A stretch of DNA of 64,000 nucleotides from an uncultured Gammaproteobacteria bacterium. Lineage in GTDB: Bacteria; Patescibacteriota; Microgenomatia; Woykebacterales; RBG-16-39-9b. Of the stretch, positions 791 to 27,741 are shown piece by piece. Each line of letters opens with the position of its first letter. The stretch's first letter is position 1. The DNA lies in NCBI GenBank assembly GCA_964349395.1, contig CAYGGA010000003.1, positions 1,424 to 65,423 of the forward strand. Reading direction: 5' to 3'. Both the position numbers and the translations under genes were made by a program. The notes beneath the pieces are model-generated. The model made no database searches. It worked only from the letters and a program-made list of their open reading frames with translations, and had not been told where the DNA came from.

Positions 791-868
791 TTGAAAACGC
801 TATATAATCTAGGCTATGGAAGCTTATTTGAAACCATTAAATCGATTCCTGGGATTGAAAAAACGGGA

Positions 869-2758: not shown

Positions 2759-2761
2759 ACA

Positions 2762-6712: not shown

Positions 6713-7993
6713 ATGAATTCAAAACTCCTGAGTGGAGTAAAAATTACATTAGCAATTGTGCTGGTAGTGGTGACTGGGGTCTTCGCTTATCTGATCACAC
6801 CGATCTTTGGAAATAAAGTGTTGATCGTGAGAAGTGGGAGTATGTCTCCGTCTCTACCGGTTGGTTCTTTGGTGGCAATAAGGCCCAAAGAAGCACTCCG
6901 TAGCCCACTACCAGCCGTTCCCGTATATCATCCCGGAGATGTTATCTCCTTTAGAGATCCTCTAAACTCCAAAACCATTACTACTCACCGCGTAGTCAGC
7001 GCCAAAACAGAAAACTACTCCGTACTTTATCAAACCAAAGGTGATGCCAATAATGACACTGATCAGAGTTTGGTTGCCGAGAAAAATGTCTTAGGAGCAG
7101 CTTTTCTCACTGTCCCCTACTTAGGACAACTTTTCTCTTTTACTAAAACTGCTTTTGGTTTCTTGCTTTTAGTCCTTATGCCAGCTATATTTGTAATTTT
7201 GATGGAAAGCTGGAATATCATTAGGGAATTAAGAAAAAAGAAACCAATCCCCTATTTCTATCTCAAAGATTTTAAAAACTCAGTCACCCACGGCCCGACC
7301 CTGACTTCTCTAATTCCACTCCTAGCAATAGGCTTAATTTTCAGCCAAACTTTTGCCTATTTTTCTGATACTGCTACTAGCACCAGCAATGTTTTTGCCG
7401 CATCAGCAGAATTTCCCAATCAAAACATAGCAGATCATGTTGTTATTAGTGAAGTTCAAATAACAGGTGGCCCTGGATCTACAAATAATGATTTTATTGA
7501 GTTATATAACCCCACTGACTCACCAATTAATTTAGATCCTTATATATTAGTGAAACGTTCAGGGAGTAGTACTACAGACACCACAATTGTTACATTTACC
7601 TCTACCCATATAATTCCCGCTCAAGGGTTCTTTCTTTGGGCGAATAGTAGCTTCACTTCAATTTCTGCAGATATTGCAACAACTGATATTTTAGCATCTA
7701 GCAATAGTATCGCTCTCAAGGTTCAAACATCAGGTGTAATTGTTGATGCTTTAAGCTGGAATAATGCGACAGAAAGTTATAAAGAAGGAACTGAATTCTC
7801 CCCAGATCCGGATCCAGGGTCAAGTATGGAGAGAAAAGCGCTCTCAACTTCCACGGCAGCGACAATGGTTTCTCCTGGAATCGATGCCACTAAGGGTAAC
7901 GGTCATGACACCAACAACAATAGCACTGATTTTATTTTAAGACCTGTATCACAACCACAAAATAGCACTAGCGGAGGAACAGAAAGTCCTTAA
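6713..7993 (+). CDS. sipW: SipW-type (S26B, archaeal/ER-like) signal peptidase I fused in frame to a second SipW-cognate signal peptide and a lamin-tail domain (LTD)
   Basis: N-terminal TM, then catalytic region VRSGSMSPSLPVGSLV (Ser motif) and a C-terminal TM anchor (FGFLLLVLMPAIFVIL). The frame continues with no stop into ...FSQTFAYFSDTATSTSNVFAAS (second camelysin-type signal). After that comes ISEVQITGGPGSTNNDFIELYNPTD..., typical of an LTD (PF00932). Confidence 0.6.
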   Translation: MNSKLLSGVKITLAIVLVVVTGVFAYLITPIFGNKVLIVRSGSMSPSLPVGSLVAIRPKEALRSPLPAVPVYHPGDVISFRDPLNSKTITTHRVVSAKTENYSVLYQTKGDANNDTDQSLVAEKNVLGAAFLTVPYLGQLFSFTKTAFGFLLLVLMPAIFVILMESWNIIRELRKKKPIPYFYLKDFKNSVTHGPTLTSLIPLLAIGLIFSQTFAYFSDTATSTSNVFAASAEFPNQNIADHVVISEVQITGGPGSTNNDFIELYNPTDSPINLDPYILVKRSGSSTTDTTIVTFTSTHIIPAQGFFLWANSSFTSISADIATTDILASSNSIALKVQTSGVIVDALSWNNATESYKEGTEFSPDPDPGSSMERKALSTSTAATMVSPGIDATKGNGHDTNNNSTDFILRPVSQPQNSTSGGTESP

Positions 7994-9012
7994 TGAAAAA
8001 ATATTTGAGAATTATTAGTCTTACTTTGATCACTTCCTTACTGATTACTCTAAATGGTGGTTTGGATTTGAGCGCTCAGACTGCTCAAGCAGCTGGGGAT
8101 TTGACAGTGAATTGGGGTCCTGGCCTCTCTGAAGGCGACCCAATTTTTGTGGTTTCCAATATGTCTCCGGGACAAATGGAAACTAGAAGTGTTGGGGTAA
8201 CCAACTCTGCCCCCTCATCTAGATCGGTCGGAGTACGGGGTATCCCCACGGATGACAGTGATAGCCTCTCTTCCCAACTGAATATTTTAATCACTGAAGG
8301 AGCGGTTACTCGCTATGGCCCCCAAACTTTGGCTCAATTTTTCACAGCTAGCGGTGGTCCGGATGGAATTTTTCTCTCTAACCTTAACTCTGGGAATTCC
8401 ACGACCTATGATTTCCAGGTAACCTTCAAAGAAACATCTGGTAATAGCTGGCAAAACAAAAGTGTGGTTTTTGACCTAAAAATTGGAGTAGCCATTGATT
8501 TGCCCTCAGAATGTGATAATTTGAACCTATCCTCTACCCCGATTATTGGTTCCTCCAAAGCAGAAACTCTGACAGGTACCCCCGGAAACGATTTGATCAT
8601 GGGTTTAGAAGGAGCAGACAAAATCAATGGTAATGGGGGAGATGATTGCATACTGGGTGGTAGCGGCGCTGACAGTATAAATGGTAATAGTGATAATGAC
8701 GTAATCTTTGGTGAAGATGGTGCAGACACTATCAATGGCAACAATGGGGATGACATCATTGTGGGTGGAGTGGGAGCTGACAGTCTCAAGGGTGAAAACG
8801 GTCAAGATCACTTGCGGGGTGGTTTAAATGCGGATACTCTCGATGGTGGCAATAATGATGATATTTTAGAAGGTAATGAACACGCGGATACCTTAAAAGG
8901 CGGTAATGGGAGTGATAATTTAGATGGTGGAAGTGGAGTAGATACTGCTAATGGTAACAATGGGATAGACACTTGTGTAGCGGAAACCAGAAACAACTGT
9001 GAACTTCCCTAA
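7993..9012 (+). CDS. Secreted beta-roll protein with hemolysin-type calcium-binding (RTX) nonapeptide repeats; Sec signal peptide
   Basis: N-terminal signal (MKKYLRIISLTLITSLLITL...AQA). C-terminal half has at least 14 tandem 9-residue repeats GGxGxDxUx (GGSGADSIN GNSDNDVIF GEDGADTIN GNNGDDIIV ...). Confidence 0.7.
   Translation: MKKYLRIISLTLITSLLITLNGGLDLSAQTAQAAGDLTVNWGPGLSEGDPIFVVSNMSPGQMETRSVGVTNSAPSSRSVGVRGIPTDDSDSLSSQLNILITEGAVTRYGPQTLAQFFTASGGPDGIFLSNLNSGNSTTYDFQVTFKETSGNSWQNKSVVFDLKIGVAIDLPSECDNLNLSSTPIIGSSKAETLTGTPGNDLIMGLEGADKINGNGGDDCILGGSGADSINGNSDNDVIFGEDGADTINGNNGDDIIVGGVGADSLKGENGQDHLRGGLNADTLDGGNNDDILEGNEHADTLKGGNGSDNLDGGSGVDTANGNNGIDTCVAETRNNCELP
8575..8970 (+). repeat. Tandem 27-bp (nonapeptide) RTX repeat array inside the CDS
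   Basis: 27-nt periodicity in the protein (GNxxDxxxG pattern). It generates spurious antisense ORFs at 8406-8996. Confidence 0.65.
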
Positions 9013-9059
9013 AGGAAAGTAGCTGATCAAGCTTTGGAAAGCTGTATCAGCTACTGTAG

Positions 9060-10380
9060 GCTGCCTGGGCTAACAATGATGTTCTCCTGTTAGTTGGTCA
9101 GTGTCGTCCCCGTGAGGAAGACGGGGAAAGTTGCGGTACATTCTTGAAAAGGATCTCCTTTTTGACGTCGTCGGACAGCTCTGTAGTGTTGTCTCGCAGA
9201 GATATGAGCTGGGCGATGCGCATTTCCTTGGTAATTTGTCCCCTCTGGAACTTCTTCCAAATCTGGCGCACGCCGTCCTCGAATTTCTCCTCTGTACTGA
9301 TGAGCCGAAGCCCGTCAAGCACTGGTGGAGACTGACTATAAACACTCAAGGGTTCTTCTCCTTTCAACCTGGTGGCAGCCTAGGTAAAACTTAACACCAT
9401 TACTATCAAATTTCAATAGGGAATTTTGGGGAACCAGTTTGGAAAGAGCGGCACTTGGTTTGCTGTTGCAAACTAGTAATCCGCTCGTTATTTTCTGGCC
9501 GCCGAAGAGAGCCTCAGCTCACTTTCAACACTAATCTTTGGCATGTAGTGCTCAATAGCAAAGGGTGGAACCTCGACTCGAACCTCACCCCGCTAGGGTA
9601 AGCGATTGTCTTGCCTTTGCTTGAACTACTTGGTGTAGCCTCAGTACTGGTGCAGAATCGGAACGTCAATGAACTCTCTCCGGCGATGTGAGTTGCCATC
9701 TCACCATTGTAGAACTGGATAGGGTCAGACCCCTCAGGGTTGACTAGGCTGATTGGACAGAGACCACCACACCTTCCTCTTGTAGGAGAGCAGGTATTCC
9801 TTGCGGAGCCAATGCTTTCCAGTACACAGGGTGACCTCTTTGCACACCCAGGAGTAGGTCGCCAATTGTGCTAATTGCCTGCGACTCGGGACTGCTTTCA
9901 ACCTTGATCGTATCGCCTTGCCAGACTTTCGAAACGTGATCTCCACCTTCGAATTCCGGCGTGGCAGTAATACTGGCTGCTTTTTTCGAGCTTCTCAGCA
10001 CGTTCTGAATAGCCAACATCTCCACCAAGGCCGTTCGTCCCGCATGGACATGACCATCGTAGACTGACGAAGCTGACCCACTTGGGGAAACAGCATTTTT
10101 CACGAGTACCTCATAAAGAACGCGAACGGACTCCAGAAGGTGCTCGACTGGGTCAGGAGTTTTCTTCAGCAAGGCAGCCGAACTGCCCACTTATTTAAAC
10201 TCCAGACAGAATTCAGCGGCGGGGAGGGTTCCACTTCTCTCCACCAATGACATGATCTCTCACCTCACGGGCATATTGCCCCAATGACTGATGAGATGGC
10301 AACGATCTAAAAACAAAATCTATTTTCAAACCGTTGCCACTCAACTAGCAACCAATATTATCACAAAAGCAATTAGTTGT
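9060..10380. other. Compositionally anomalous GC-rich (~50% GC) segment in a convergent intergenic position; no intact gene; possible pseudogene remnant, foreign DNA or structured RNA
   Basis: Sharp GC jump against ~37% flanks. Only short overlapping ORFs (89, 91, 148 aa) with GC3-rich codon usage unlike the rest of the window. Stop-to-stop bounded. No recognisable domain. Confidence 0.4.
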
Positions 10381-10389
10381 TCAAGGTTA

Positions 10390-11520
10390 TTAACTAGTTG
10401 TTTTTTCCTCTGCTAACACGTCTAACAAAACTTTTCTTGTCTCTCTTGAAAATTTTTCCCAACTATACTTTTTGACCTGATCTTTTCCAAGACGAATGTA
10501 TTTTTCCCTGATCTCCTTCTCCTTTAGTAAAATATTGATTCTGGTTATTAAATCTTCTTTGTCCTGTGGGTCAAAATACATGGCCGCCTCACCGTAAACT
10601 TCTTTAAAGACAGGAATATCACTAACCAAAACTGGCAGACCGACACTCATAGCCTCAAGACCTGGTAAACCAAATCCTTCCTCAAAGGAGGGGAAAACAA
10701 AAGCAGTGGCTGTTTGATATAAATCTTTTAGATCGCTATCCCCAACTCTTCCCGTAAAAACAATTTTCTCAAGAACCCCATTGTCAATTGCCTGCCTTTT
10801 AAGACGTCTAAGAAATTCATTTTCAGGACTTACTAAAACAATCTTCACCCCTTTTAGAGAGCCAGCTACCTCCACTAATAGTTCCAAGTTTTTGTGGGGA
10901 GAATTATTACCAACTGCTAAGATAAAATCATTTACATGATACCTTTCTCTAACACTAGCTTTTTCTTCCTGAGTTAATTTATCCCCAAAAGTCTCATCCG
11001 CTGCTTCGGCAATCACGGCGATACGATCTTCAGGTAAACTAAATTTTCCAATTAATTTCTCCTTAACTACCAGACTGGGAACAATTATTTTCTCCGCTTT
11101 TCTTACTGCTCGATTTAAAACTACTTGGTAGCTAAGATGTTTAAAATTATACAAAAGCGGATTTCTTAGAGTCGCTTTTTGTCCTTTAAACTCAGTGATG
11201 ATCAGGTCATGAATCATTACCACCATTTTACCCGGGTAAAAAACAGGGATATTTAGATGGGGAACAAAAAGTAAGTCTAGCTTTTCCCTAGAGAAAATTC
11301 TGGGGAGGAGAATTTGTTCTGATATCGAGTACCATCCTACATTGGCAACAACTTTTTTGAAGTTAGGCTGTTCCGGGTGGTACTGATCAAAATTGTCTTC
11401 CTTTAAAAACACAACGTAATTTGTTTCAGAGTCAATTTTTTCTAAGTTCCTAAGCAAATTTACTAGGACTCGACCAATACCAAAATCACCATAGAACCGT
11501 GCGTCAATACCAATCGTCAT
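10390..11520 (-). CDS. Glycosyltransferase family 4
   Basis: GT-B C-terminal motif FEEGFGLPGLEAMSVGLPVLVSDIPVFKEV. Confidence 0.7.
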   Translation of the reverse strand: MTIGIDARFYGDFGIGRVLVNLLRNLEKIDSETNYVVFLKEDNFDQYHPEQPNFKKVVANVGWYSISEQILLPRIFSREKLDLLFVPHLNIPVFYPGKMVVMIHDLIITEFKGQKATLRNPLLYNFKHLSYQVVLNRAVRKAEKIIVPSLVVKEKLIGKFSLPEDRIAVIAEAADETFGDKLTQEEKASVRERYHVNDFILAVGNNSPHKNLELLVEVAGSLKGVKIVLVSPENEFLRRLKRQAIDNGVLEKIVFTGRVGDSDLKDLYQTATAFVFPSFEEGFGLPGLEAMSVGLPVLVSDIPVFKEVYGEAAMYFDPQDKEDLITRINILLKEKEIREKYIRLGKDQVKKYSWEKFSRETRKVLLDVLAEEKTTS

Positions 11521-12812
11521 ACCATCATCTCCACCACTTCTTGCGCCAGTTTTATAGAATAGTTTTGGCCTCTATCCCAAGGATAGACCTGACCCATATT
11601 AGCTAAATAAATATTTTTGATTCCCGTGGTGTGAGGTGGAATATGGTCCTTGTACCCAATCTTGACAATTGGTTGTGCGTAGGGGGCTCTAAATAGTTGA
11701 TAATCTTCTACCCAATCTTCCTTAAAACTAGGATTTATCTTGGCTAGATATGGGACATATTTTTTAAAGGTTTCTTCTGGAGTTAGTTTAAATCTAGGAT
11801 CAGTAGTAGCTAAGTAATTACCCAAGTAAATTAAATGTTTGCCGCCGTAATCAGACGTGGGCATAAAATTGGTATGCTCAACAAATACCAAAAAAGGAAA
11901 AGACTGGTCAGAAATATTTAGCCAGTAATAGTCACTTAACTTTCTTTTCAAAGTCAGAACCAAAGTCTGGGCCCCAAAATAATCATCCCAATGGTATTTT
12001 TCCTTGAAACTAGGACTCAGTTGGGGTGTGAGTTTGAAAAACAGATTAGTTGGCAAGGTCACTAAGACCTTGTCAAATTTATAGTCCTTTTTGTCAGTGG
12101 TCACAGTTACTTCACCATCTTTCTCCTCAATCATAATTGCGCTTTCCCCGAAGACCATGTTCCCTCCGCCTTTTTTAATTCTTTCTTCCAGAGCGACATA
12201 CAATTGGTAAAAGCCATTTTTTAGGTAACCTAGTTTTTGGGTACGGCTAAAGACTCGAGCCCAAAACCAACTCATGGTAATCTGGTCATAGTTTTTGTCA
12301 AATTTACCTTTCAGCAACGGGTCAAAAATTACCTGATAAGCTTCTTTACCGATTGCTTTTTTAAGCCAGATTGCGGCAGTAATGTTTTCGAACTGGTGAT
12401 AATTCTTAGTTAGTTTTAGGTAAGCTAAAACTAGTCCCAAACGAACACGATTAAAAGGTTTTAAGGGTGAGAATTTTAAAACAGTGGCAGGGGAATCAAG
12501 TGGGTAAATTTCACCTTTATATAAAGTACCAGTTTTCCCTGGTTTCCAAATTAGTTTATTTTCTAATCCAAGTTCCTTTATAAGACTCACAATGACTGTG
12601 TCGGTTTGAAAAATATGATGGTAAAATTTTTCGAAGTAACTGTCACCGATTTTCAGAGAGGTGAGTAGACCACCGACTGTTTCTTCCTTTTCAATGACGG
12701 TGACTTCATGACCTTTTTCTTGCAAACGAAGGGCAGCCGTCAGTCCTAAGGCCCCACTGCCTAGAACACCAATTTTGAGCTTTTGCGAAAAACGAGCTTC
12801 GCTTCTCTTCAA
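11517..12812 (-). CDS. FAD/NAD(P)-dependent oxidoreductase (amine-oxidase / UDP-galactopyranose-mutase-like fold)
   Basis: Rossmann dinucleotide motif KIGVLGSGALGLTAALRLQEKGHEVTVIEKEETVGG. The likely start is a TTG at 12812-12810 preceded by GAGGGG, which abuts the stop of the upstream gene. The track ATG at 12893 would overlap that gene by 85 nt. Confidence 0.55.
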   Translation of the reverse strand: MKRSEARFSQKLKIGVLGSGALGLTAALRLQEKGHEVTVIEKEETVGGLLTSLKIGDSYFEKFYHHIFQTDTVIVSLIKELGLENKLIWKPGKTGTLYKGEIYPLDSPATVLKFSPLKPFNRVRLGLVLAYLKLTKNYHQFENITAAIWLKKAIGKEAYQVIFDPLLKGKFDKNYDQITMSWFWARVFSRTQKLGYLKNGFYQLYVALEERIKKGGGNMVFGESAIMIEEKDGEVTVTTDKKDYKFDKVLVTLPTNLFFKLTPQLSPSFKEKYHWDDYFGAQTLVLTLKRKLSDYYWLNISDQSFPFLVFVEHTNFMPTSDYGGKHLIYLGNYLATTDPRFKLTPEETFKKYVPYLAKINPSFKEDWVEDYQLFRAPYAQPIVKIGYKDHIPPHTTGIKNIYLANMGQVYPWDRGQNYSIKLAQEVVEMMV

Positions 12813-13774
12813 GATTTCCCCTCTGAAAGTTTGGTTACCGAGATATTCATTTTCCAAGCATAGTAAAAACCCACCAGAGTAATCGGCAGCCATTGGGTGA
12901 AGTGAGTTAAGATCGCGTAAGAAAAAGCGATATTTCTATCCACTCCAAAAAAGACGGCGACCTGCGTGAAGAAAAACTCAAATGTTCCCAAATACCCTGG
13001 TCCTGAGGGTATGAGAGTAGAGAGACCTACCACCAAAGCAATGAGGGCAGCTTGATAAATACTAAGATCTAAATTAAAACTTTTGGCAATTAGCCAAAAC
13101 ATTCCCGCTTCAATCATCCAAATCACCAGAGAGGCAAGCAAAACTAGAGCCACTGATCGGATAGATTTCAAAGCCTTAAGACCTTCCAAAAAAGCTACAG
13201 CCGAGGCGAAAGGGCGTTTCAATCTTTCTTGACGTTCAACCCAAACAAAGATTTTTTTGACAGAAGTTGTTTTTTCGATCAGGGGGAGGAGAAAAACTCC
13301 TACCGCAACGACCCCGAAAAGTAGACTAGCTAAAAGCAAGGGGGTCTTCAAATCTTCTGGAAAAGGGAGCACCATGATAAGTAAGCTAAATAAGATAACT
13401 AGCGAGAGGCCATCATAGAGTCTTTCTCCAAATATCACGGCCAGCATGCTGCTACGAGATACCCCCAGAGTGCGCCCCGTGATATGCGCGCGGACAACCT
13501 CCCCAAGTCTCAAAAACAAGACGTTGTTAGACATGTACCCGATTGCTAAATAAGGAAAGAGACTACGTACCCTTACTTCTTTAAATGAAAGAAGCAGGTA
13601 TTTCCATCTCAAAGTCCTAAGCCAAAAACCAAGAAAATGAAAAGCTACCGATACTAAAACTAGCGGGTAGTTCACTTTTGTAAAAGCAACCCCCAAAGCC
13701 TCAAAATTTATCTGGCGCACCACTAAAAAAAGAAAGAAAGCGCTCACCACTAAGCCAACTAGAACTCTTTTCAT
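12809..13774 (-). CDS. Flippase-like membrane protein (UPF0104 / lysylphosphatidylglycerol-synthase TM-domain family)
   Basis: About 8 predicted TM helices. Conserved basic/Gly segment YLAIGYMSNNVLFLRLGEVVRAH typical of the MprF-TM/UPF0104 family. Confidence 0.5.
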   Translation of the reverse strand: MKRVLVGLVVSAFFLFLVVRQINFEALGVAFTKVNYPLVLVSVAFHFLGFWLRTLRWKYLLLSFKEVRVRSLFPYLAIGYMSNNVLFLRLGEVVRAHITGRTLGVSRSSMLAVIFGERLYDGLSLVILFSLLIMVLPFPEDLKTPLLLASLLFGVVAVGVFLLPLIEKTTSVKKIFVWVERQERLKRPFASAVAFLEGLKALKSIRSVALVLLASLVIWMIEAGMFWLIAKSFNLDLSIYQAALIALVVGLSTLIPSGPGYLGTFEFFFTQVAVFFGVDRNIAFSYAILTHFTQWLPITLVGFYYAWKMNISVTKLSEGKS

Positions 13775-14520
13775 TTAAGACTCCTTTGAGATTTTCCAGG
13801 ACCCATATATCTCCACCACAAAAGAATCGTCTCAAAAAAGGCTTTGATGATGACTTTTGGATTGGCTCCAGATTGCTTACCAGCCACTCGGGGATAATGA
13901 TTTACCCCTACTTCTTTCACACTTTTACCCATAATCTGAGCTTTTAGCATAATTTCAGTATTTACTAAAGCGCCAATGGTTTCAAAATTTATCTTATCTA
14001 AAACTTCACGATGGTAGATTTTGAAAGCACAATCAATATCTCGAAGTTTAACACTAAATAATGTAATCACCATTAAATTGTATGTGCGTCCGATCATCAC
14101 GCGGTACCATGGGTCTTGGCGCACTGTTCTAAAACCAGCAACAATGTCAAAACTTCTAACATATGGTAACAATTTGGTAATATCTTTGATCTCAAACTGT
14201 CGATCTGAATCCATAAAGAAAACTAGGTCGCGTGTGCTCGCCCTGAAACCAGTAGTGAGAGCAGCTCCATAACCCAAATTCTTAGGGTGAGAGATTAGTC
14301 TCACTCTTCCTTCTTTCTTGACAAAATCCTCTACTACTTCTTTGGTGTTATCCGTACTACCATCATCAACCACAATAATCTCGTAATCAAGTTTAAGCGA
14401 ATTTAGGACCAAAACTGCTTCTGGTAACAGTATGGGAAGATTTTTTCCTTCATTATGAGCTGGCAAAACTACCGAGATGGAGAGGTGTTCGGCTGCTGAT
14501 TTAGTGTTTTTGTCTTGCAT
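13771..14520 (-). CDS. GT2 glycosyltransferase, Dpm1/GtrB-like polyprenyl-phosphate sugar synthase
   Basis: ISVVLPAHNEGKNL...IIVVDDGSTDNT DxD region, about 250 aa, C-terminal amphipathic segment. Confidence 0.7.
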   Translation of the reverse strand: MQDKNTKSAAEHLSISVVLPAHNEGKNLPILLPEAVLVLNSLKLDYEIIVVDDGSTDNTKEVVEDFVKKEGRVRLISHPKNLGYGAALTTGFRASTRDLVFFMDSDRQFEIKDITKLLPYVRSFDIVAGFRTVRQDPWYRVMIGRTYNLMVITLFSVKLRDIDCAFKIYHREVLDKINFETIGALVNTEIMLKAQIMGKSVKEVGVNHYPRVAGKQSGANPKVIIKAFFETILLWWRYMGPGKSQRSLK

Positions 14521-14548
14521 TCAGAAATATCATCTTAGTGTGCAGAAC

Positions 14549-17095
14549 TTAATAATTAGCCAATAAAACTAGCATACCAGCTCTTTTTAAGAGCCGCAAT
14601 CCTCTCTCATCGCGGGCAAATTTCTGGAGCAGGACTTCCCCGCGATCAGCTGAGGTAATCAAAAGTTGGAGTTTTTCACTGGTAATTGTCTTTTCAATAT
14701 CATAGTTGTCGACTTCCTGGTACTTACCTTCAGTATAATAACCAGCCACTTTGGTACTCACCCCGTTTAGTAGCAGTAAATTTTGGCTTCTTCCTTGGTA
14801 TTCAGGACTTAGAATTAGGTCAGCCAAATCTTGGTTGGCATTAGGAGGCGTGATCTTGGTTGTGACTGATGGTAAATTAATATACAGAGGCAACGAGATT
14901 ATCAAAATGACTGGGATAGCGTACTTTACCAGTTTTCCAACGCGCAGATGGTTGAGAGAATGCTTTTGGTAATATTTATAAGTAAGATACACAATAAGTA
15001 GTGACAGCAAGGGTGTCAAAGCGAAAATATTCGGTAAGTGACGGAAATAATTTTGCATAAAAATTACCGGGTCATAAATAACGCTGTAGAGATGCCATGG
15101 TAAAAAGATCAGTAAAAATACGGTTAGATTGACATTGATAAGCAACCCTTTCTTAAGTAGAGTTCGATTCCAGTTTAGTAGTAATAAAAGGTAAATTGGC
15201 AAAAATAGAATAGTAAGTAAACCATCAGTTAGGCTAGCTAACCCCAAAGAGACGCCACTGAGAAGAAAAAGGTGACGGTGTTTTTTACTAAGTTGTAAGG
15301 TATAAATAGAAAGCAAAATAAAGAATGCTGCCATAATTTCCGTATTGACACTACGAGTGAGATAGACAAAAGGTGTGATAAACAGACTTAGCAGGGCTGT
15401 CACAGTAGCCCAGTAACGGTTAATTAGTTGCCTCGCAATAAGATAAGTGAGGAAAATTGCCCCCACTCCAAAGAGGGCCGGCAAAAAACGAATGATAAGA
15501 TTTGGTACGCTCAAATAGAGATGAATAATATTGGTTGATAACCAGTAAAACAAAGGTGGGTAGGACAGATAAGTTGCGCCCTGGTAAGTAGGTACCAGCC
15601 AGTTAGTATTGCGATACATTTCACGAGCAACGGTTGCCAAAACCGCTTCGGAGCTAATGACATTAGTCGATCCCAACCTGTAGAAAATAACAAAGATTGC
15701 TGAGAGTAAGACCGAAACTGCCGGAATAATCTCATACCAATTTAGAGTCTCTTTTTTTTCTCCGTCTGCTAAAACTACCCCTTCTTTCATCAACCGCTCA
15801 AACACCATGGTAAAAAGTAATGCTAAAAAGATGTAAAACCAAAAAAATTCTAAGTTGTAGGAGTAGAAGATTCCCCCAGTCCAAATTCCGATCAGGCCAC
15901 TTAGGAATCCAATGGAGTAAATTTTGACAGTTTTATTATGACTGTGACGAATAAGTTTAATAAGTGATTTAAGAATTAGAATGACAAAAGCTAAATAGAC
16001 AGACAGACCAACCAACCCAGTCTCTGTGATAATCTCAAACCAAACAGAGTGAGCCGGAATTCTCACATCCGCGGGGTCAACTCTAGAGTGTTCCATCCCC
16101 GTTTCACTCTGGCGAAACTTTTCAGAAAAACTACCATAACCAATTCCGAAAATTGGGTTTTCTGTAAAAAGCTCAACTTCACCCCGAAGCAATAGGTAAT
16201 GAGCCTTGGTAGAAGGTTCTTCAAGGTCAACTACGGATTTTACCCTATCAAGTAAAGAACGTCCGGTAGCATTGGAAACAAAGATTACCAGTCCTGATAT
16301 GGCAATGGCCCCAAGTAAGGGTAAAATCTTGCGGTAATACCCCGACTTGATTCCTAAAATTAATATGACCAGACTACCTACTATTAAGGAAAGTAGCCCA
16401 CTTCGGGAAAAGGAGTAAAGAATGACAAAAGAGATCAAGAAATAAGCTAACCACCAGAAAGCTTTTGGCCAGAATTTTTTTTCGAGCCATGAAAAAGCTA
16501 CCACCATGGGGGCAATCATGCTCAGGTAAGCCGCAAAATGATTAGCGTCAAAAAATGTTCCGGGTAAGCGTATATAGTCTCCCCCACTTAGAACTCCAGG
16601 AAGATTATGTCCAATAAAGGTAATTACTACATACTGAAACAAACCATAAAAACCAACTACAAGACCAAAAAGGACAAAAGCTCGCACCAATTTGATTACA
16701 AAAAATCTCGATGGCAAAAGAATCGACCTCATCAAAATGTATAGACTTATCATCGCTGTGTAGAAAGCGAAAAGCTCGACACTGGCACCAAGATTACCAC
16801 TTTGCATGAGTGATACTAATCTTATCAACCAGAGTACTCCTAAAAGGCGGAAAACATTGTCCCCTGAAAGTTCTTTGACTGCTTTAGTGAAATTTAGTGT
16901 CTTTTTAGTGATACCCTGAAAAATAAAGTAAACTCCTGCCAAGATTAGAAAGAGCAATAAAATTCTTACGGGCACAATTTTGTTATAGAGGATACTCATA
17001 CGAGAGTGGTCAGCTAAGGGAATTAAGACTACAAAAAGTAGCAGACTGTATTGGAAAAATTCTAAAAAGTTTGTAATTTTAGGCAGTTTTGGCAT
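14549..17095 (-). CDS. Fusion membrane protein: N-terminal O-antigen ligase/polymerase-like (Wzy_C) domain plus C-terminal GT-C (PMT/ArnT-like, GT39/GT83) domain
   Basis: N-terminal half is multi-TM with the YSFSRSGLLSLIVG motif (Wzy_C SRG signature) and a large loop. C-terminal half has a loop-1 acidic motif SSEAVLATVAREMY...YPPLFYW, as in ArnT/PMT. 848 aa. Confidence 0.5.
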   Translation of the reverse strand: MPKLPKITNFLEFFQYSLLLFVVLIPLADHSRMSILYNKIVPVRILLLFLILAGVYFIFQGITKKTLNFTKAVKELSGDNVFRLLGVLWLIRLVSLMQSGNLGASVELFAFYTAMISLYILMRSILLPSRFFVIKLVRAFVLFGLVVGFYGLFQYVVITFIGHNLPGVLSGGDYIRLPGTFFDANHFAAYLSMIAPMVVAFSWLEKKFWPKAFWWLAYFLISFVILYSFSRSGLLSLIVGSLVILILGIKSGYYRKILPLLGAIAISGLVIFVSNATGRSLLDRVKSVVDLEEPSTKAHYLLLRGEVELFTENPIFGIGYGSFSEKFRQSETGMEHSRVDPADVRIPAHSVWFEIITETGLVGLSVYLAFVILILKSLIKLIRHSHNKTVKIYSIGFLSGLIGIWTGGIFYSYNLEFFWFYIFLALLFTMVFERLMKEGVVLADGEKKETLNWYEIIPAVSVLLSAIFVIFYRLGSTNVISSEAVLATVAREMYRNTNWLVPTYQGATYLSYPPLFYWLSTNIIHLYLSVPNLIIRFLPALFGVGAIFLTYLIARQLINRYWATVTALLSLFITPFVYLTRSVNTEIMAAFFILLSIYTLQLSKKHRHLFLLSGVSLGLASLTDGLLTILFLPIYLLLLLNWNRTLLKKGLLINVNLTVFLLIFLPWHLYSVIYDPVIFMQNYFRHLPNIFALTPLLSLLIVYLTYKYYQKHSLNHLRVGKLVKYAIPVILIISLPLYINLPSVTTKITPPNANQDLADLILSPEYQGRSQNLLLLNGVSTKVAGYYTEGKYQEVDNYDIEKTITSEKLQLLITSADRGEVLLQKFARDERGLRLLKRAGMLVLLANY

Positions 17096-18242
17096 AAACA
17101 GAATTTAGCTTCCGGCCGATTTTTTCCCATGAATATTTTTCCTCGACCAATTTTTTTGCACCTTGTACTATCTTAACATTTAGAGCAGAGTTCTCCAAGA
17201 GCTCAGCGCAAGCAAGGGAAAATTCCGCGGGAGTTTCAGCCAGCAGAAATTCCTCCCTAGGTCGCGCTTCCAAACCCTCAATCCCCACTTTGGTCGTAAT
17301 CACGGGCAAGCTACTGGCAAAAGCTTCAAGTACTTTGAATTTTGTACCACTTCCTGCCCGCAAAGGAGCCAACATCACCGTCGCTTTGCAGTAAGCTTCA
17401 CGGATGTCGTTTAAATCAGTCTGAACTTTAATATCAGGGTTATTTAGCTTTAGCAACCAGTCTTGTTGAGCTCTCCCGACAAACCATAGCCTAGCATTTG
17501 GTACTGCCCTTTTAATCTCCGGCCAGATTTCTTTCACTAGCCAAATGGCACTATCTGCGTTTTGAATATAGTTGGTGGGCCCCACAAAAAGGAAAAGAGA
17601 ATCTTCTGGTTGCCTCTTTACACCCTTAAAAAAATCTATGTCAATACCATTGGGTATCACCGGGCAGTCTTTACTAACCACATCTTCAATTACCTTTTGG
17701 TCACTCACTGAAACTGCTAGACTAGTATCGGCAATCTTCCATTTATTTTCCTCATACGTTTTCATGCGGGCAATATCAAATTTCATAAGTGAGCGAGCTG
17801 GTTCCTTTTTAGTGGCTGCGTATCTTTGGTAGATAAAATACTCAACGTTTTGGTTCCCAGCTACTACCTTTACTCCTAAATCCTTTTCCAAAAAAGGAAA
17901 GGTATAAAAAGACTCAAAGTGAGCTAGATCATAACCCTGACGTAGCTCCACTTTTAACTTACGAGTGACTTCCGGATCATAGTAAAGAGCAGCGGCAAAA
18001 GGGTATTTCACCAAATACTTCAAGTTGTTGAAAGAATTAATTTTTCTCCTTTTAAAGGTTTTCACCTCCTTGACAATTTTTTTAAGTTCCGACAGATAAT
18101 TCAGCTCACTCTCTTGCCGAATAAAGGAAAAAAGAGTGACTTCATGCTCTTTTGAGATTTGTTTTAGCAGGTTTAAAGATCTGACCTGTCCCCCACTAAA
18201 GGGTGGCAAAGGCAGAGCGGAAGTGAAAAAAAGTACCTTCAT
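17079..18242 (-). CDS. Glycosyltransferase family 4
   Basis: GT-B motif LRAGSGTKFKVLEAFASSLPVITTKVGIEGL. Confidence 0.7.
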   Translation of the reverse strand: MKVLFFTSALPLPPFSGGQVRSLNLLKQISKEHEVTLFSFIRQESELNYLSELKKIVKEVKTFKRRKINSFNNLKYLVKYPFAAALYYDPEVTRKLKVELRQGYDLAHFESFYTFPFLEKDLGVKVVAGNQNVEYFIYQRYAATKKEPARSLMKFDIARMKTYEENKWKIADTSLAVSVSDQKVIEDVVSKDCPVIPNGIDIDFFKGVKRQPEDSLFLFVGPTNYIQNADSAIWLVKEIWPEIKRAVPNARLWFVGRAQQDWLLKLNNPDIKVQTDLNDIREAYCKATVMLAPLRAGSGTKFKVLEAFASSLPVITTKVGIEGLEARPREEFLLAETPAEFSLACAELLENSALNVKIVQGAKKLVEEKYSWEKIGRKLNSVYAKTA

Positions 18243-19363
18243 GAAATCGCCTCTCTATATATAGTATCTAGCCTGTCTACTATTTTGGTCCAATTGTATT
18301 TCTCGGCAACGTCTGTAGATGCATTATTGATCAAATTTTGAGTGGCTTTCTTATCTCCTAAAATGGTAATTACTTTTTCCGCCAAGTCCTTTGAATTCTC
18401 AGTGTCAAAAAGCAGACCAGTTTCTCCGTCCCTCACTATCTCGGGTATGGCTGTGTTGTTTGCGGCGACCACTGGTATTCCAGCAGCAAAGGCTTCAATC
18501 ATAACGATCCCAAATGCTTCGCTTCTCGAGGGCAAGCAAAAAAGATCACTTACTTTATACGCACCTAAAAGTTGGGGTCGCGTCACCTTTCCGGCAAAAA
18601 TAACCTGTTCTGTCAACCCCAAATCCTGGGTGGTTTTTTCGAAAAATGCTTTTTCCCCAAAATCCGGTCCGACTACTAAAAGCTTGACTTCCTTGTCCTT
18701 CTCTAAAACTCTCGGAAGAGCTCGAAGAAGTGTATCCACACCTTTATGCGCTGTTAACCTCCCGACAAAGAGAATCACTTTATGATCACGTAAATTGTAT
18801 TTGTCCCAGAAAGAGGTGTCTGCTCCCCCAAATTCTGCCACATCGACTCCAATAGGCAAGACTTCAAATCTTTTTACAGTTACCTTCTCTTTTTCAATAA
18901 GACTTTTTTCGAAATTGGAGATCACAATGGTAGTCTCAGCATTAAAAGCTAGTTTACCAATCGTACGATTATGTAACCTACCTAAAGAAGTAGTACCAAA
19001 CATCCCTGCGTAAGGTGAAAAAATGTAAGGAGTTCTTTTTATTTTTTGTAAAACAGCAGCCAGGTCAGTAGTAAATCTTTTATTAGCATGCAAATGCCAA
19101 AGATCAAAACTACTTCCTAACAACTTTAGAGCCATGCTTGGGACTACTGGTGAAAACGGACCTTTTCTAACTCCTGGCACAGTCCACAATCTTTCTACTT
19201 TTACACTATTAACAATGTTTGAGTAATCAGTATCTAGATTGGAAGTAAAAACTGTAACTTCATGGCCCAGGTTCATCACTAGTCTTTCGGAGTATTGTTT
19301 GACTGTTTCTTCCACACCACCTATGGAAGGATAATAACGTGGGGTGACTTGTAAAATTTTCAT
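18239..19363 (-). CDS. Glycosyltransferase family 4
   Basis: SRSEAFGIVMIEAFAAGIPVVAANNTAIPEIVRDGETG. Confidence 0.75.
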   Translation of the reverse strand: MKILQVTPRYYPSIGGVEETVKQYSERLVMNLGHEVTVFTSNLDTDYSNIVNSVKVERLWTVPGVRKGPFSPVVPSMALKLLGSSFDLWHLHANKRFTTDLAAVLQKIKRTPYIFSPYAGMFGTTSLGRLHNRTIGKLAFNAETTIVISNFEKSLIEKEKVTVKRFEVLPIGVDVAEFGGADTSFWDKYNLRDHKVILFVGRLTAHKGVDTLLRALPRVLEKDKEVKLLVVGPDFGEKAFFEKTTQDLGLTEQVIFAGKVTRPQLLGAYKVSDLFCLPSRSEAFGIVMIEAFAAGIPVVAANNTAIPEIVRDGETGLLFDTENSKDLAEKVITILGDKKATQNLINNASTDVAEKYNWTKIVDRLDTIYREAIS

Positions 19364-19375
19364 TTGAGACCTCTT

Positions 19376-20920
19376 CTAGCGCCAAGTGTAAAGATAAAAT
19401 CCATTCTTTAGTTTTGTTTCCTGACAAGGGCCATGTTGTTTTAGTAAATCTTTCTGACAAGGCACCAATTGCTGTTGATGATCTAGTAGCAAACCCTTCT
19501 CCTCCAGTGGTGCTGTGTTTACTAAACGTCGGTACTCAGGGTAACGAGCCTCGATAGGCGGATTGTCTCTCGTAGCGGCGATTATTTCTTCCCCTGATTC
19601 TAAAACCAGGTGGTAAGAAACCAAGGCATGAGTATCCACATACTTGATGTTTTTTTCTCTTAGGGTCTGGATGGTTTCTTTTAGGTCAACCTGGGAGACA
19701 AAGGAACCTACAGGAACTTGAGTTAGACCAAAAATTTGGGTTCCTAAAACAATCAAGTAGAGTCCCATGGCTAAGCCTTTATTAAATCTTTCTTTTATTT
19801 CTTTAACCAGAAAAACTATTAAAATAGGGAGCGCAGTGTAAAGTGGGCCAATATAACGTGGCTCCTCAATGAATTGGTTGAAGGGAGAAGAAAAACTAAA
19901 AATTATAAAAACTGAAAGCGAAAAAAGTAAAATTAAATCCACTGGCTGCAAACTGAAAGCGATTTTTAACCTCGGAGTTAAGGTAATTAGTCCAAAAGAC
20001 AAAGTTTTCAAAACATCCAGTAGTCTTTTCACTAGCAACCACCCGAACGCAAGTAGGTAGATACCACTTACCAAATAAGTAAGCAGGGTAGAGAAATCCA
20101 CTCGGGAAAAAGGCTTTCTAAGCCCAAACATAATCGGCAGGCCCACGGTAAAAAACTCCACCATGGCTTTTTTCACTCCAAACGGTTTATGGAAAAGAGA
20201 TTGGGTATTGAGATTTGAATGATTGATGTTAAAAACAATTACGGTCAGGCTACCTAGAACAAACCCTAGAATTCCTGCTAAAAATAGCCTAGTTAAAAAA
20301 ATCTTCGGTTTCCAAAAAAAGACAAAGGCTGCTGAAGGCAGCAAGTAGTAGATGATTGTGGGTTGCACCCAATAACCAAGCCCCGCAAAAATACCCATAA
20401 GGAAAAAAGAAACCGTCTGTGCTCTGGAATTTAGTTTGTCATAAACATTCTTGATAATCAGAATAAAAATTAGATTTCCAAAAACCATGGTCTCCGGGTA
20501 CCCAGTACCAGCGCGAGTCGTCCAATTCATCCAAAAGGGGCTAGTTATGGCAGTTAACAGAAGAGATAAAAGAGCATAGTTTCTCGAGTTAAAAACCAAC
20601 TTTGCTAGAAAGTAAGAACTAAAAAGAAAACCAATGGAAAAAAGAAAGATAGGTAATTTTACTAAGTAATCATGAATTCCAAAGAGTCCAAAAAAGGCCG
20701 CTGTAACAAACGCACTCAAAGTCCCAGTGTAGTTTTGATTGTAATAAAAAACACTCCTCTCCCCTTGCAGGATATTTAAGGCCTGGACGCCATAAACTGC
20801 TTCATCCGCACTCAGCCTAGTTTCTGGAGCCATCATATAATAAAGTCTTAAACCAATCCCAACTAAGAGAATGATCCAAAACCCAATTTTGAAATTTAGG
20901 GGGGTTAATTTAAAACTCAT
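19376..20920 (-). CDS. GT-C glycosyltransferase (ArnT/PMT-like, GT39/GT83); polyprenyl-phosphate-sugar dependent
   Basis: TM1, then loop motif RLSADEAVYGVQALNILQG (DE motif). More than 10 TM helices. 514 aa. Confidence 0.55.
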   Translation of the reverse strand: MSFKLTPLNFKIGFWIILLVGIGLRLYYMMAPETRLSADEAVYGVQALNILQGERSVFYYNQNYTGTLSAFVTAAFFGLFGIHDYLVKLPIFLFSIGFLFSSYFLAKLVFNSRNYALLSLLLTAITSPFWMNWTTRAGTGYPETMVFGNLIFILIIKNVYDKLNSRAQTVSFFLMGIFAGLGYWVQPTIIYYLLPSAAFVFFWKPKIFLTRLFLAGILGFVLGSLTVIVFNINHSNLNTQSLFHKPFGVKKAMVEFFTVGLPIMFGLRKPFSRVDFSTLLTYLVSGIYLLAFGWLLVKRLLDVLKTLSFGLITLTPRLKIAFSLQPVDLILLFSLSVFIIFSFSSPFNQFIEEPRYIGPLYTALPILIVFLVKEIKERFNKGLAMGLYLIVLGTQIFGLTQVPVGSFVSQVDLKETIQTLREKNIKYVDTHALVSYHLVLESGEEIIAATRDNPPIEARYPEYRRLVNTAPLEEKGLLLDHQQQLVPCQKDLLKQHGPCQETKLKNGFYLYTWR

Positions 20921-22398
20921 TTAAGTCCTTTTTTCTTGGCGAGTAGTCTTACCCCATCATCTACCAAAACCTCATAAGTGCCTAGACTCCTAATTTCTTT
21001 TTTAAAACTTTCTAAAGCTTCGTATTTGTAAAAAGAATCTGAGGTTTCTAGATTTGTTAAAACTAAATAATCAGGGCTCTGCCTACCCAATAAACTGGGT
21101 TCGAACGAATAAATCTCTTTTCTCTGGCTTAGGTGAGGTACCCACGAGGACTGCGCTCCCACACTCACATCCGAGGGAATCATTTTCAAAACTTCATAGT
21201 TTTTCTTCAAATCCTGCGATAACTCGTAGGATTTCGGGTTGATAATTCTCGTCAAGGGACCATTATTGCGGTAAGTAAAGTAAAGAGGTGAAATAATCAG
21301 CACAATCGATACTACAGGTAGGAGATAACTACTCACCTTATCTTTGATTTTTAACTTCCTTGAGACCCATAAGAGATTAGAAATAGCATTGATTGTTGCA
21401 ATTGCAAAGATCACGCCCAAAATAGCTGAATACTGGAACCGGATGATCCACCGCTGAATCAAGGTTGTCAAGAATCTTTCGGCAATGTTAGGAAAAGTTA
21501 AGACCAAAGTTTCTGGACTAAGCAGAGGCAGAAAAGCAAAAGAACCAATCAAATTGAAGGTTGTTTTGATCTTGATTAAATGGTCATCATAAAAAGCAGC
21601 CTTAGCTACGAGAAAGGGATTGGTAATGGATTTTACGACTAGATCTAAGCCAGTTTTACCAATCTCAGGAGGCAAGTGTTCATAAGCAAAAATGTCTTTC
21701 TTAAAGAAAGGAATAATATAACTAGTGATTATAAAGTAGCTAGCAAGTCCTACTCCGACGGTAATTAGCCCGATTTTATAGAGTCTCAATCGAATCACTC
21801 CATAAACTCCTAACATCGCTACGTATAGAGGCATATCTTCTTTGACCAAAAGACTCAGACCAATCATCAGGAAATAAAGTTTGATCCTTTTGTCATGCAG
21901 AAAAAGAATTGCAAAAGCAAATAGTGGCAAACCAAAGGCAATTTCATGAAAATCATAATCAATCAGCGTCTGCACCCCAATGAAGGTCAGGTAGGCAAAT
22001 GCAATTGCCAGCCCAAAATATTTTTTCTTGAATCGATTGACGGCTAGTTGGTACAATGGCCAAGCAGCAATGCCCACCGCTAACGCTTGAGCTACCAGAA
22101 TTCCAGACACATCTTTCCATATCCAATAGATCGGAGCTAAGAAAACCAAGATGGGATGGAAATGGTCACCAAGTAAATTGGCCCCAGGAGTCGTGCCAAA
22201 TTTGACAGTGCTCATTGGGGCTTCAAAGTGTGAATAATGCCAGAGTGCTTGGTCAAAAATTCCTAGGTCCACAGCGTCGGTTTGAAAATGAAGGTGGCGG
22301 TTTATACTCCACAAAGCATAAACAACAATAAAAAAGGTGATTAGGAACAGAATTTCCCAATGCACTCTAATTTTAGGCCAAAGTTTCATCCTTTTCAT
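20917..22398 (-). CDS. DUF2079-family polytopic membrane protein
   Basis: Conserved HFHPILVFLAPIYWIW block. Multi-TM N-terminal half, extracytoplasmic C-terminal domain. Paralog of 25091-26569. Confidence 0.5.
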   Translation of the reverse strand: MKRMKLWPKIRVHWEILFLITFFIVVYALWSINRHLHFQTDAVDLGIFDQALWHYSHFEAPMSTVKFGTTPGANLLGDHFHPILVFLAPIYWIWKDVSGILVAQALAVGIAAWPLYQLAVNRFKKKYFGLAIAFAYLTFIGVQTLIDYDFHEIAFGLPLFAFAILFLHDKRIKLYFLMIGLSLLVKEDMPLYVAMLGVYGVIRLRLYKIGLITVGVGLASYFIITSYIIPFFKKDIFAYEHLPPEIGKTGLDLVVKSITNPFLVAKAAFYDDHLIKIKTTFNLIGSFAFLPLLSPETLVLTFPNIAERFLTTLIQRWIIRFQYSAILGVIFAIATINAISNLLWVSRKLKIKDKVSSYLLPVVSIVLIISPLYFTYRNNGPLTRIINPKSYELSQDLKKNYEVLKMIPSDVSVGAQSSWVPHLSQRKEIYSFEPSLLGRQSPDYLVLTNLETSDSFYKYEALESFKKEIRSLGTYEVLVDDGVRLLAKKKGLK

Positions 22399-22428
22399 TT
22401 TACATTAGGATCAGACAACCTGGCAATG

Positions 22429-23109
22429 TTAGTTGGTAAAACGGTACTTAACTAGTGTCCAAAGAGCTGCCACGCCATCATTCCATCTAATTTTCTTGCC
22501 TTCCCCTTTGGTACGTCCATTATATTGGATCGGTACTTCGTAAATTTTTACACCTTGTTTGGATAATTTGGCAGTGATCTCTGGGCAAAAATCAAACCGG
22601 TTACATTTTAGTTTTTGGTTTTTTAAAATTTCACTTTTAAAAACTTTATAGCAAGTGGCCTCATCCGTTATATTAATGAGATAAAGGACGTTAGCAGTCA
22701 TTGTTAAAATTTTGTTTGCTAACCAGTTGGCAAGGGCCATTCCTTTAATTGACCCTTTAAATCTGGACCCATAAACTACCTTGGCCCTCCCATCCTCGAT
22801 CGGTTTTACCAGTGAGTAGTAGTCTTGAGGGTTATACTCCATGTCCGCATCTTGAATCAGGATGATGTTCCCACTTGCTTCCTTAATACCGGTTCGAATC
22901 GCGGCCCCTTTGCCCATATTTTTGGTGTGGCTCACAACTTTGAGACTTTTTAGTTTAAACTTTTTTAGCTCCGGCAGGGAGCCATCAGACGAAAAATCAT
23001 TAACAACAATAATTTCTTTAGGGATTTTTACTTTATTAACTGCCTCAATCACCCGCCCAATATTTTTCTCTTCGTTATAGACAGGGATGATAACTGACAG
23101 ACGTGTCAT
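22429..23109 (-). CDS. GT2 glycosyltransferase, Dpm1/GtrB-like
   Basis: LSVIIPVYNEEKNI...IIVVNDFSSDGS. 226 aa. Confidence 0.7.
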   Translation of the reverse strand: MTRLSVIIPVYNEEKNIGRVIEAVNKVKIPKEIIVVNDFSSDGSLPELKKFKLKSLKVVSHTKNMGKGAAIRTGIKEASGNIILIQDADMEYNPQDYYSLVKPIEDGRAKVVYGSRFKGSIKGMALANWLANKILTMTANVLYLINITDEATCYKVFKSEILKNQKLKCNRFDFCPEITAKLSKQGVKIYEVPIQYNGRTKGEGKKIRWNDGVAALWTLVKYRFTN

Positions 23110-25034: not shown

Positions 25035-25090
25035 GATCTAATCATATTCGTTTGTGGTTAATGTCTGCAAACTCATTAATTCTTGCAGAA

Positions 25091-26569: not shown

Positions 26570-26584
26570 TCCAACTATTGTATA

Positions 26585-27706: not shown

Positions 27707-27741
27707 ACCTACAAGTATAGCTAAATATTGGCGATCACGCT

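Follow-up and report, generated by a model that had tools for sequence, protein, structure and literature searches.

Can two classes of enzyme that act on lipid-linked glycans be joined in a single membrane protein, and are both halves then at work? This question is raised by an 848-residue protein encoded in a 64-kb stretch of DNA (64,000 nucleotides of contig CAYGGA010000003.1, hereafter the window), in which an N-terminal half (module 1) of the WaaL/Wzy type, known from O-antigen ligases and polymerases, is followed by a C-terminal half (module 2) that resembles ArnT and PMT, glycosyltransferases (GTs) of the GT-C fold class. A sequence-only reading of the window had described such a fusion and suggested that it couples chain ligation to the addition of a side branch. 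As described below, the fusion is genuine, and we hold with moderate confidence that it joins an active WaaL/Wzy-type transferase to a GT-C module that would be non-catalytic or chemically altered. The interest of such a protein lies partly in its hosts: the envelope of the Patescibacteria (the candidate phyla radiation, CPR) is biochemically almost unknown, and these organisms rely on surface contact with their hosts.

The fusion and its homologues

The gene lies on the minus strand, which the sequence-only reading had not given, and runs uninterrupted from ATG to stop (848 codons plus stop), whereas the plus-strand translation of the same positions is riddled with stops. Both motifs that had been picked out, YSFSRSGLLSL in module 1 and YPPLFYW in module 2, are present at the amino-acid level; their coordinates (Table 1) are back-translated. 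The domain assignment was borne out as well, with matches in both halves far beyond chance: Pfam Wzy_C (PF04932; E 4e-17, 62.7 bits against a gathering score of 31.7), PMT (PF02366, aa 499-673; E 1.6e-15, 57.8 bits against 22.7) and PMT_2 (PF13231, aa 513-668; 47.6 bits against 26.1). An NCBIfam scan of the protein gave no equivalog above its cut-off, only sub-threshold similarities. The best of these across the full length of the N-terminal half were TuaE, a teichuronic acid polymerase candidate (54.7 bits, cut-off 366), IctB (48.5 bits, cut-off 188) and PEP_O_lig_1 (27.9 bits, cut-off 400), none of which is fused to a GT-C; for the GT-C part (aa 462-670) the best was ArnT (NF009784, 32.1 bits, cut-off 567). 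A phmmer search of the single protein against PDB sequences returned no match, and ArnT was reached only with a family profile. Neither phmmer nor the family profile, run against PDB sequences, gave a sequence-level match to WaaL.

Homologues were collected from 5.8 billion proteins by a word-indexed search and from 1.84 billion cluster representatives by an exhaustive search with a profile. The former yielded 39 full-length fused proteins, which are 816-992 aa long, share as little as about 25% identity and mostly carry both Pfam domains; all residue counts given below refer to these 39. The latter added about 30 more of 760-1160 aa. In total, the fused family comprises some 65-70 full-length homologues from many independent samples and assemblers. 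The organism labels on their source records are WWE3, Woykebacteria, "Patescibacteria group" and "Saccharibacteria", with a single "Gammaproteobacteria". The last belongs to the best match among species-representative genomes (CAZXPY010000001.1, 41% identity), titled "uncultured Gammaproteobacteria bacterium", and is probably a mislabelled bin, because all other organism-labelled carriers are of the Patescibacteria type. Homologous fusions, which the sequence-only reading had proposed to look for in CPR genomes, thus exist.

Several lines of evidence bear on the integrity of the junction. The identical 848-aa product is recorded in an ENA metagenome assembly and in a 70-kb NCBI genome contig, and an unrelated sample contains an 81%-identical, gap-free, colinear orthologue, also of 848 aa, from which the window gene differs to saturation at synonymous sites. 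Neither a stop nor a change of frame occurs at the junction, and the linker is itself conserved (E449 in 37 of 39, W453 in 31 of 39) and modelled with high confidence. Because fused homologues recur, identical records exist, the divergence from the orthologue is saturated and the linker is conserved, a frameshift or misassembly is effectively excluded as the source of the fusion.

One relative, L022, encodes the halves in two separate, neighbouring genes whose order and context match those of the fusion: a TGA closes the Wzy_C gene just after helix 12 and is followed, after 9 nt, by the ATG of the GT-C gene (4651-4665). The two genes are apparently genuine and may represent the unfused ancestor; such an arrangement is what one would expect to have preceded the fusion, and it speaks for a functional link between the halves. 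Two other relatives resemble splits at first sight. In L018, the linker is interrupted by a single in-frame TAA (1745-1784) with no credible restart, and L020 is a frameshifted copy broken into three frames (529-3195); they may represent pseudogenisation and error, respectively, and neither was accepted as a real split, since only L022 resembles two real genes. Two further candidates were set aside: P0059 ends at a contig end and is no evidence for separate halves, and P0072 ends 22 nt before a contig end, which leaves its stand-alone status ambiguous.

Predicted structure and topology

The AlphaFold2 model, built on the 39-sequence alignment, has a mean predicted local distance difference test score (pLDDT) of 87.5 and a predicted template modelling score (pTM) of 0.80. 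In the model, the residues up to aa 437 make up twelve long helices and include a helical loop of 75 residues (aa 276-350) on the extracytoplasmic side. About nine further membrane helices follow between aa 453 and 748, with an amphipathic helix (aa 481-495) in their first loop, and the chain ends in a small alpha/beta domain (aa 755-848) in which Y787 and L844 are invariant. In a Foldseek search of the PDB, the best match was ArnT (5f15, E 2e-7) and the next was WaaL (7tpg_B, E 1e-6, with a TM-score of 0.65 on the target); AglB, ALG12, FtsW, RodA and PMT came after them. The protein is thus predicted, in line with the sequence-only reading, to consist of two membrane folds, one WaaL-like and one ArnT-like, and not of a single one.

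Both termini of WaaL lie in the cytoplasm, as does the N-terminus of ArnT, whose C-terminal domain is external. Because the order of the modules can be combined with these topologies, we infer by analogy that both putative active sites lie on the outer face of the membrane and that the linker is cytoplasmic.

The ligase-like half

Nearly all invariant columns of the fused family fall in module 1. They comprise G167, R176, F181, D183, N185, H186, S230, R231, S295, H299, G317, G319-G321, D340, P347, H349, E354, G360, G363 and Y411-F417, of which R176, S230, R231 and H349 occur in 39 of 39; the window protein keeps every residue of this half that is conserved across the family. The Wzy_C domain, the 12-helix scaffold and the large helical external loop ahead of TM10 are shared with PglL, PglS and WaaL of Cupriavidus metallidurans (PDB 7TPG), although identity to WaaL is only about 17% and WaaL is not joined covalently to a second membrane module. 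The segment H349-S350-x9-G360-x2-G363 fits the His motif of O-antigen ligases, H-[NSQ]-x9-G-x2-[GTY]. In WaaL and PglS, the role of catalytic base has been proposed for a His and that of binding the pyrophosphate for Arg residues, with PglS H324A serving as an inactive control (PMC12800693). Judged from motif and fold, the invariant His and Arg of module 1 would be the counterparts of these, and H349 is presumed to be the catalytic base by analogy. The best reading of these motifs is that module 1 would be an active WaaL/Wzy-type transferase of polyprenyl-pyrophosphate-linked glycans.

The evidence on the type of transfer points in two directions. The His motif and the structural match to WaaL favour, by analogy, ligase-type chemistry. 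No other open reading frame (ORF) of the window matches the Wzy_C half, which is the only recognisable polymerase candidate in this Wzx-containing locus, and the absence of another candidate favours polymerisation. Hosts of the Patescibacteria type are not known to make lipopolysaccharide (LPS), and in contrast to the situation of WaaL there is no obvious lipid A-core acceptor. With no obvious LPS acceptor and with the only polymerase candidate of the locus in this half, the name "ligase" is best treated as provisional.

The GT-C half and its lost signature

An alignment of the family profile with the ArnT sequence (E 3.5e-38) fixes the register once a three-residue offset of the deposited chain is corrected. 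The order of elements is that of ArnT (GT83; PDB 5EZM/5F15) and PMT (GT39): first transmembrane helix, external-loop helix, PPL motif and conserved Arg. ArnT has 13 helices, and the module of the window protein is shorter, with about nine. It also differs at the positions of the catalytic signature. ArnT D55, which lies at the same position as PMT1 D77, corresponds to S482; E84 and K85, the latter of which binds the lipid phosphate in ArnT ("FEKP"), correspond to S511 and Y512; and D158 corresponds to E586. Among these mapped acidic and basic residues, only ArnT E56 has an identical counterpart, E483. Consequently, the first loop reads S481-S482-E483 where canonical relatives have D-x-D-E and ArnT has P-D-E. 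The acidic motif that had been recognised in this loop is therefore half present: the Glu is kept, and the Asp regarded as catalytic is replaced. The importance of this Asp is illustrated by PMT1 D77 and by the inactive D52A variant at the equivalent position of TMEM260 (PMC10214176). It is present in the canonical fused relatives and also in the two stand-alone PMT-type proteins of the window, as "SADEA" (19376-20920) and "VSDEM" (27742-29064). In addition, the segment corresponding to ArnT H265-H267-R270 is about 25 residues shorter than in canonical relatives and reads YF-R685-H686-LPN, in an ambiguous stretch of the alignment.

These differences divide the family into two kinds of members. 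Canonical ones, mostly 880-1070 aa long (900-1070 in one count), carry D-x-D-E, FEKPP, L-D and Y-H-x3-R, which together make up the complete ArnT-like signature. Degenerate ones (784-874 aa), to which the window protein belongs, are without these motifs and retain only E483 (38 of 39), P514 (invariant), R536 (39 of 39) and W667. At the position of ArnT D158, canonical relatives have Asp and the window clade has Glu, and the residue is missing in most degenerate members. Because ArnT and PMT both have the canonical state, the degenerate state is derived.

Judging by these losses, module 2 of the window clade is most likely a non-catalytic partner, which may hold the substrate or lipid or may serve as a scaffold; alternatively, the retained E483 and R536 may be the centre of an altered chemistry. 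The coupling of chain ligation to side-branch addition presumes a working GT39/83 site. In the window protein, side-branch addition by this half is doubtful because the catalytic equivalents are replaced and the H265-R270 segment is shortened, and this part of the earlier proposal is not supported in the form given; in the canonical relatives, side-branch addition is plausible.

Constraint and phylogeny

How far the two halves have diverged varies with the state of the signature. In canonical members, mean pairwise identity is nearly the same in the N-terminal half (41.3%) and in the GT-C membrane part (40.5%), whereas the values are 51.0% and 27.1% in a large degenerate clade and 67.0% and 48.3% in the window clade. 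Constraint on the GT-C half is thus relaxed exactly in the groups without the catalytic signature. Against the 81%-identical orthologue, the nonsynonymous divergence (dN) is 0.114 in the N-terminal half, 0.172 in the GT-C membrane part and 0.062 in the C-terminal domain; the synonymous divergence (dS) is saturated in the first two and computable only for the C-terminal domain, at 1.48. The ORF stays intact in about 28 degenerate members, and the degenerate module 2 is under purifying selection and not in decay, a qualitative conclusion, as saturation of dS in two of the three regions precludes a dN/dS ratio.

In a neighbour-joining tree of the N-terminal halves, computed without support values, the window clade adjoins the canonical members P0006-P0009, and the large degenerate clade sits elsewhere, beside other canonical members. 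Because the two clades sit apart, we tentatively suggest at least two independent losses of the signature. The canonical and degenerate versions constitute a natural experiment on what role a GT-C scaffold has beyond catalysis.

Proposed mechanism and alternatives

We propose the following sequence of events. The Bac_transf protein and the GT4 enzymes of the locus would build a polyprenyl-pyrophosphate-linked oligosaccharide that Wzx flips. Module 1 would then transfer this glycan on the outer face of the membrane, either to another repeat unit (polymerisation) or to a final acceptor (ligation); H349 would serve as the base, and the pyrophosphate would be held by Arg residues. In canonical relatives, module 2 would add to the same product a sugar from a polyprenyl-phosphate-sugar, which the neighbouring GT2 would synthesise and the neighbouring flippase-like protein would flip; in the window clade, it would be kept for a non-catalytic or altered role. 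A fixed fusion of two classes of lipid-linked-glycan transferase would indicate the physical coupling of two outer-face steps, and the canonical members are candidate two-in-one enzymes for glyco-engineering. As a more specific suggestion, put forward tentatively, the GT-C half may be a pseudo-glycosyltransferase that holds lipid or acceptor, is needed by the WaaL/Wzy-type half and arose at least twice from a doubly active ancestral fusion. If true, the protein would be without precedent both as a covalently coupled GT-C_A/GT-C_B machine and as a pseudo-enzyme among the GT-Cs, and it would define a core step of envelope-glycan assembly specific to Patescibacteria.

A number of observations weigh against an inactive module 2, and together they make up the case for a less likely alternative, namely that, as in the sequence-only reading, both modules are active, with the Wzy_C half ligating or polymerising and the GT-C half adding a monosaccharide branch. 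The inactivity of module 2 is deduced from the loss of residues. The almost invariant E483 lines up with the Glu in the DE motif and could be the base, D158 could have its substitute in E586, R536 is kept in 39 of 39, and the basic residues R685 and H686 persist near the shortened segment. The half still reaches 57.8 bits with Pfam PMT, and its low dN indicates a module that is functional in some sense. Moreover, the window clade retains the GT2 and flippase-like genes directly downstream, as would fit an active GT-C. These genes could equally serve the stand-alone GT-Cs of the locus, however, which keep the Asp and could use the GT2 product. The alternative also has to accommodate the replacement of the D55, E84 and K85 equivalents together with the shortened segment, as well as a relaxation of constraint, relative to the N-terminal half, that is seen only in clades without these residues. 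An active transferase with a non-catalytic or altered partner therefore remains our preferred reading.

A similar division of labour is known from multi-component transmembrane glycosylation systems (reviewed in PMC8035078) such as GtrABC, CsbB/GtcA/YfhO and GacI/J/K/L, in which a GT2 that makes a C55-phosphate-sugar, a flippase and a GT-C act together. The window likewise has a GT2 and a flippase-like gene beside a GT-C gene, but here the GT-C is fused to a Wzy_C enzyme and, in the window clade, is without its catalytic signature; the flippase candidate belongs to the LPG_synthase_TM type and not to GtrA or Wzx, and the real third component could be one of the other GT-Cs of the locus, in which the signature is kept.

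It is improbable that the Wzy_C half polymerises and the GT-C half then moves the finished lipid-linked chain en bloc, although a monoderm offers a precedent for chain ligation by a GT-C: in the model for the Lactococcus polysaccharide pellicle (PSP), WpsH and WpsI polymerise, and the GT-C WpsJ then attaches the chain to rhamnan (PMC10821137). The fusion would physically join two such outer-face steps, polymerisation and GT-C transfer, and its sole Wzy_C-family match stands in a 64-kb locus with two Wzx flippases and a Bac_transf. In Lactococcus, however, the proteins are separate, belong to different families and have no sequence relation to the fusion, and their roles, that of WpsJ included, are partly still a model. 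The GT-C catalytic residues are lost in the window protein, the nearest solved relative of its C-terminal half is ArnT, a monosaccharide transferase, and a separate STT3/PglB-like GT-C in the locus is a better candidate for en-bloc transfer.

Quite improbable, too, is a machine for protein O-glycosylation, in which a PglL/PglS-like N-terminal half and a PMT-like C-terminal half would act on the same secreted, pilin or S-layer proteins. Wzy_C and the invariant His motif do also define PglL and PglS, the C-terminal half matches Pfam PMT, and LTD-domain and RTX-repeat proteins, possibly secreted or surface substrates, are encoded nearby on the other strand. Yet no pilin or S-layer gene is conserved beside the fusion in the five loci examined, the C-terminal half is nearer to ArnT than to PMT and has no Asp of the PMT DE motif, and the conserved context (Bac_transf, Wzx, many GT4 genes) is that of polysaccharide assembly. 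Finally, the merging of two adjacent genes by a lost stop or frameshift in assembly or sequencing, for which one could cite the separate genes of L022, the TAA of L018 and the frameshift of L020, is so improbable in view of the many fused ORFs, the twice-recorded product, the saturated orthologue and the conserved linker that it can be set aside.

Comparison with characterised systems

In all characterised systems that we found, the counterparts of the two halves are enzymes in their own right, as the sequence-only reading had stated, and a full-text literature search gave no description of a Wzy_C/GT-C fusion. The combination of domains is nevertheless visible in precomputed database annotations, and NCBI names one member "O-antigen ligase family protein". 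The fusion would therefore be built from two known kinds of enzyme and would not be a new kind; what is unexpected is that the GT-C signature has eroded, apparently more than once, in a module that is itself kept.

The surrounding glycan locus

A single glycan locus, read from the minus strand, takes up nearly all of the 64-kb window, and besides the genes of Table 1 it holds more than twelve GT4 genes and several sugar-modifying enzymes. Around the fusion there is a conserved block, GT4-GT4-[fusion]-GT2-(flippase-like)-FAD oxidoreductase ... Bac_transf-DUF4012-RecO, that recurs around the homologues P0007, P0030, P0039 and P0002, that is in four other loci; the GT4 pair is also found upstream in the L022 locus. 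The fused proteins thus sit always at the same place in a conserved envelope-glycan locus. The adjacent GT2 has its best NCBIfam similarities to ArnC, PgfS, PpgS and AglJ, all below cut-off. A scan of 9000-27800 for promoters and terminators gave numbers near the expectation from shuffled sequence.

Table 1. The fusion gene, its parts and other genes of the locus, with positions in the window
Feature	Position	Strand	Basis
Whole ORF, fused Wzy_C/GT-C membrane protein	14549-17095	-	ORF call, translation, Pfam; 100% identical P0001/P0204 in public assemblies
N-terminal module, aa 1-437, WaaL/Wzy_C-type (GT-C_B-like) fold, predicted	15785-17095	-	AlphaFold2 helices, Foldseek
Pfam Wzy_C match, aa 217-368	15992-16447	-	Pfam; coordinates back-translated
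SRSG motif, aa 230-233	16397-16408	-	motif in alignment; back-translation
H349, invariant His, presumed base	16049-16051	-	alignment; analogy
Linker, aa 438-452 (EGVVLADGEKKETLN), predicted cytoplasmic	15740-15784	-	alignment, AlphaFold2
GT-C (ArnT/PMT-like) transmembrane module, aa 453 to ~750	14846-15739	-	Pfam, Foldseek, family profile
First external loop S481-S482-E483 of GT-C module	15647-15655	-	alignment, ArnT profile mapping
YPPLFYW, aa 512-518	15542-15562	-	alignment, ArnT profile mapping
R536, invariant Arg of GT-C module	15488-15490	-	alignment
E586, at ArnT D158 position	15338-15340	-	profile mapping
C-terminal alpha/beta domain, aa ~751-848, inferred extracytoplasmic	14552-14845	-	AlphaFold2, alignment
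RecO	14-790	-	domain scan
DUF4012 protein, 629 aa, uncharacterised	869-2758	-	domain scan
Bac_transf, initiating polyprenyl-phosphate phosphoglycosyl transferase	2762-3412	-	domain scan
ManC	3457-4584		domain scan
LTD protein (426 aa) and RTX-repeat protein (339 aa, four calcium-binding repeats)	6713-9012	+
FAD/amine-oxidase-type oxidoreductase	11517-12893	-	NCBIfam PRK07233 "hypothetical protein", 467 bits, above cut-off
Flippase-like membrane protein (LPG_synthase_TM/TIGR00374, above cut-off)	12809-13774	-	Pfam, NCBIfam
Small GT2, polyprenyl-phosphate sugar synthase type, downstream neighbour	13771-14520	-	Pfam
Two upstream GT4 genes, the nearer overlapping the fusion start by 17 nt	17079-19363	-
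GT-C, PMT_2	19376-20920
DUF2079, two genes	20917-22398; 25091-26569
Two further small GT2s, polyprenyl-phosphate sugar synthase type	22429-23109; 29976-30659
Polytopic GT-C, 642 aa, predicted	23106-25034	-	no Pfam/NCBIfam match; AlphaFold2 and structure search
GT-C, PMT	27742-29064	+
Wzx-type flippase (Polysacc_synt_3)	41909-43363	-
Second Wzx-type flippase	62323-63600

The 642-aa protein was considered as a hidden Wzy polymerase and rejected, as its model (pLDDT 86.8, pTM 0.91) has an STT3/PglB-like GT-C fold, closest to STT3 and PglB and then to AftA and ArnT. Its invariant residues include D137, E235 and the motif E-W-W-x-D-W (aa 250-255), and homologues are found on the same contigs as those of the fusion; it looks like an undescribed family related to the oligosaccharyltransferases. 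Three more polytopic proteins of 638-698 aa without a Pfam match, at 36487-38403 (+), 45468-47507 (-) and 47554-49650 (-), have acidic motifs soon after the first helix (PGVDEDS, GFTSDNFS and GYTSDNFS, respectively) and may be further GT-C-like enzymes. At least five GT-Cs are recognised in the locus by Pfam or structural match, and with these three the total could come to nine or more. Five or more GT-C enzymes in a conserved locus would mean heavy use of lipid-phosphate-sugar chemistry outside the membrane.

Other genes of the locus hint at the chemistry of the product. Between 29061 and 34000 there are a GFO/IDH/MocA oxidoreductase, a HAD phosphatase, an ATP-grasp protein and a 543-aa thiamine-diphosphate enzyme, a cluster that is unusual for an O-antigen-type locus and hints at an uncommon sugar or substituent. 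The FAD oxidoreductase adjoins the pair of GT2 and flippase-like genes in at least three other loci and might modify the lipid carrier or a lipid-linked sugar. With the starts as called, its ORF overlaps the end of the flippase-like gene by 85 nt (12809-12893); its true start is probably further downstream, because the NCBIfam alignment starts only near aa 40. Distant relatives keep the trio Bac_transf-DUF4012-RecO at the end of the locus, and the DUF4012 protein, judged from its position, could be a partner in chain-length control or export.

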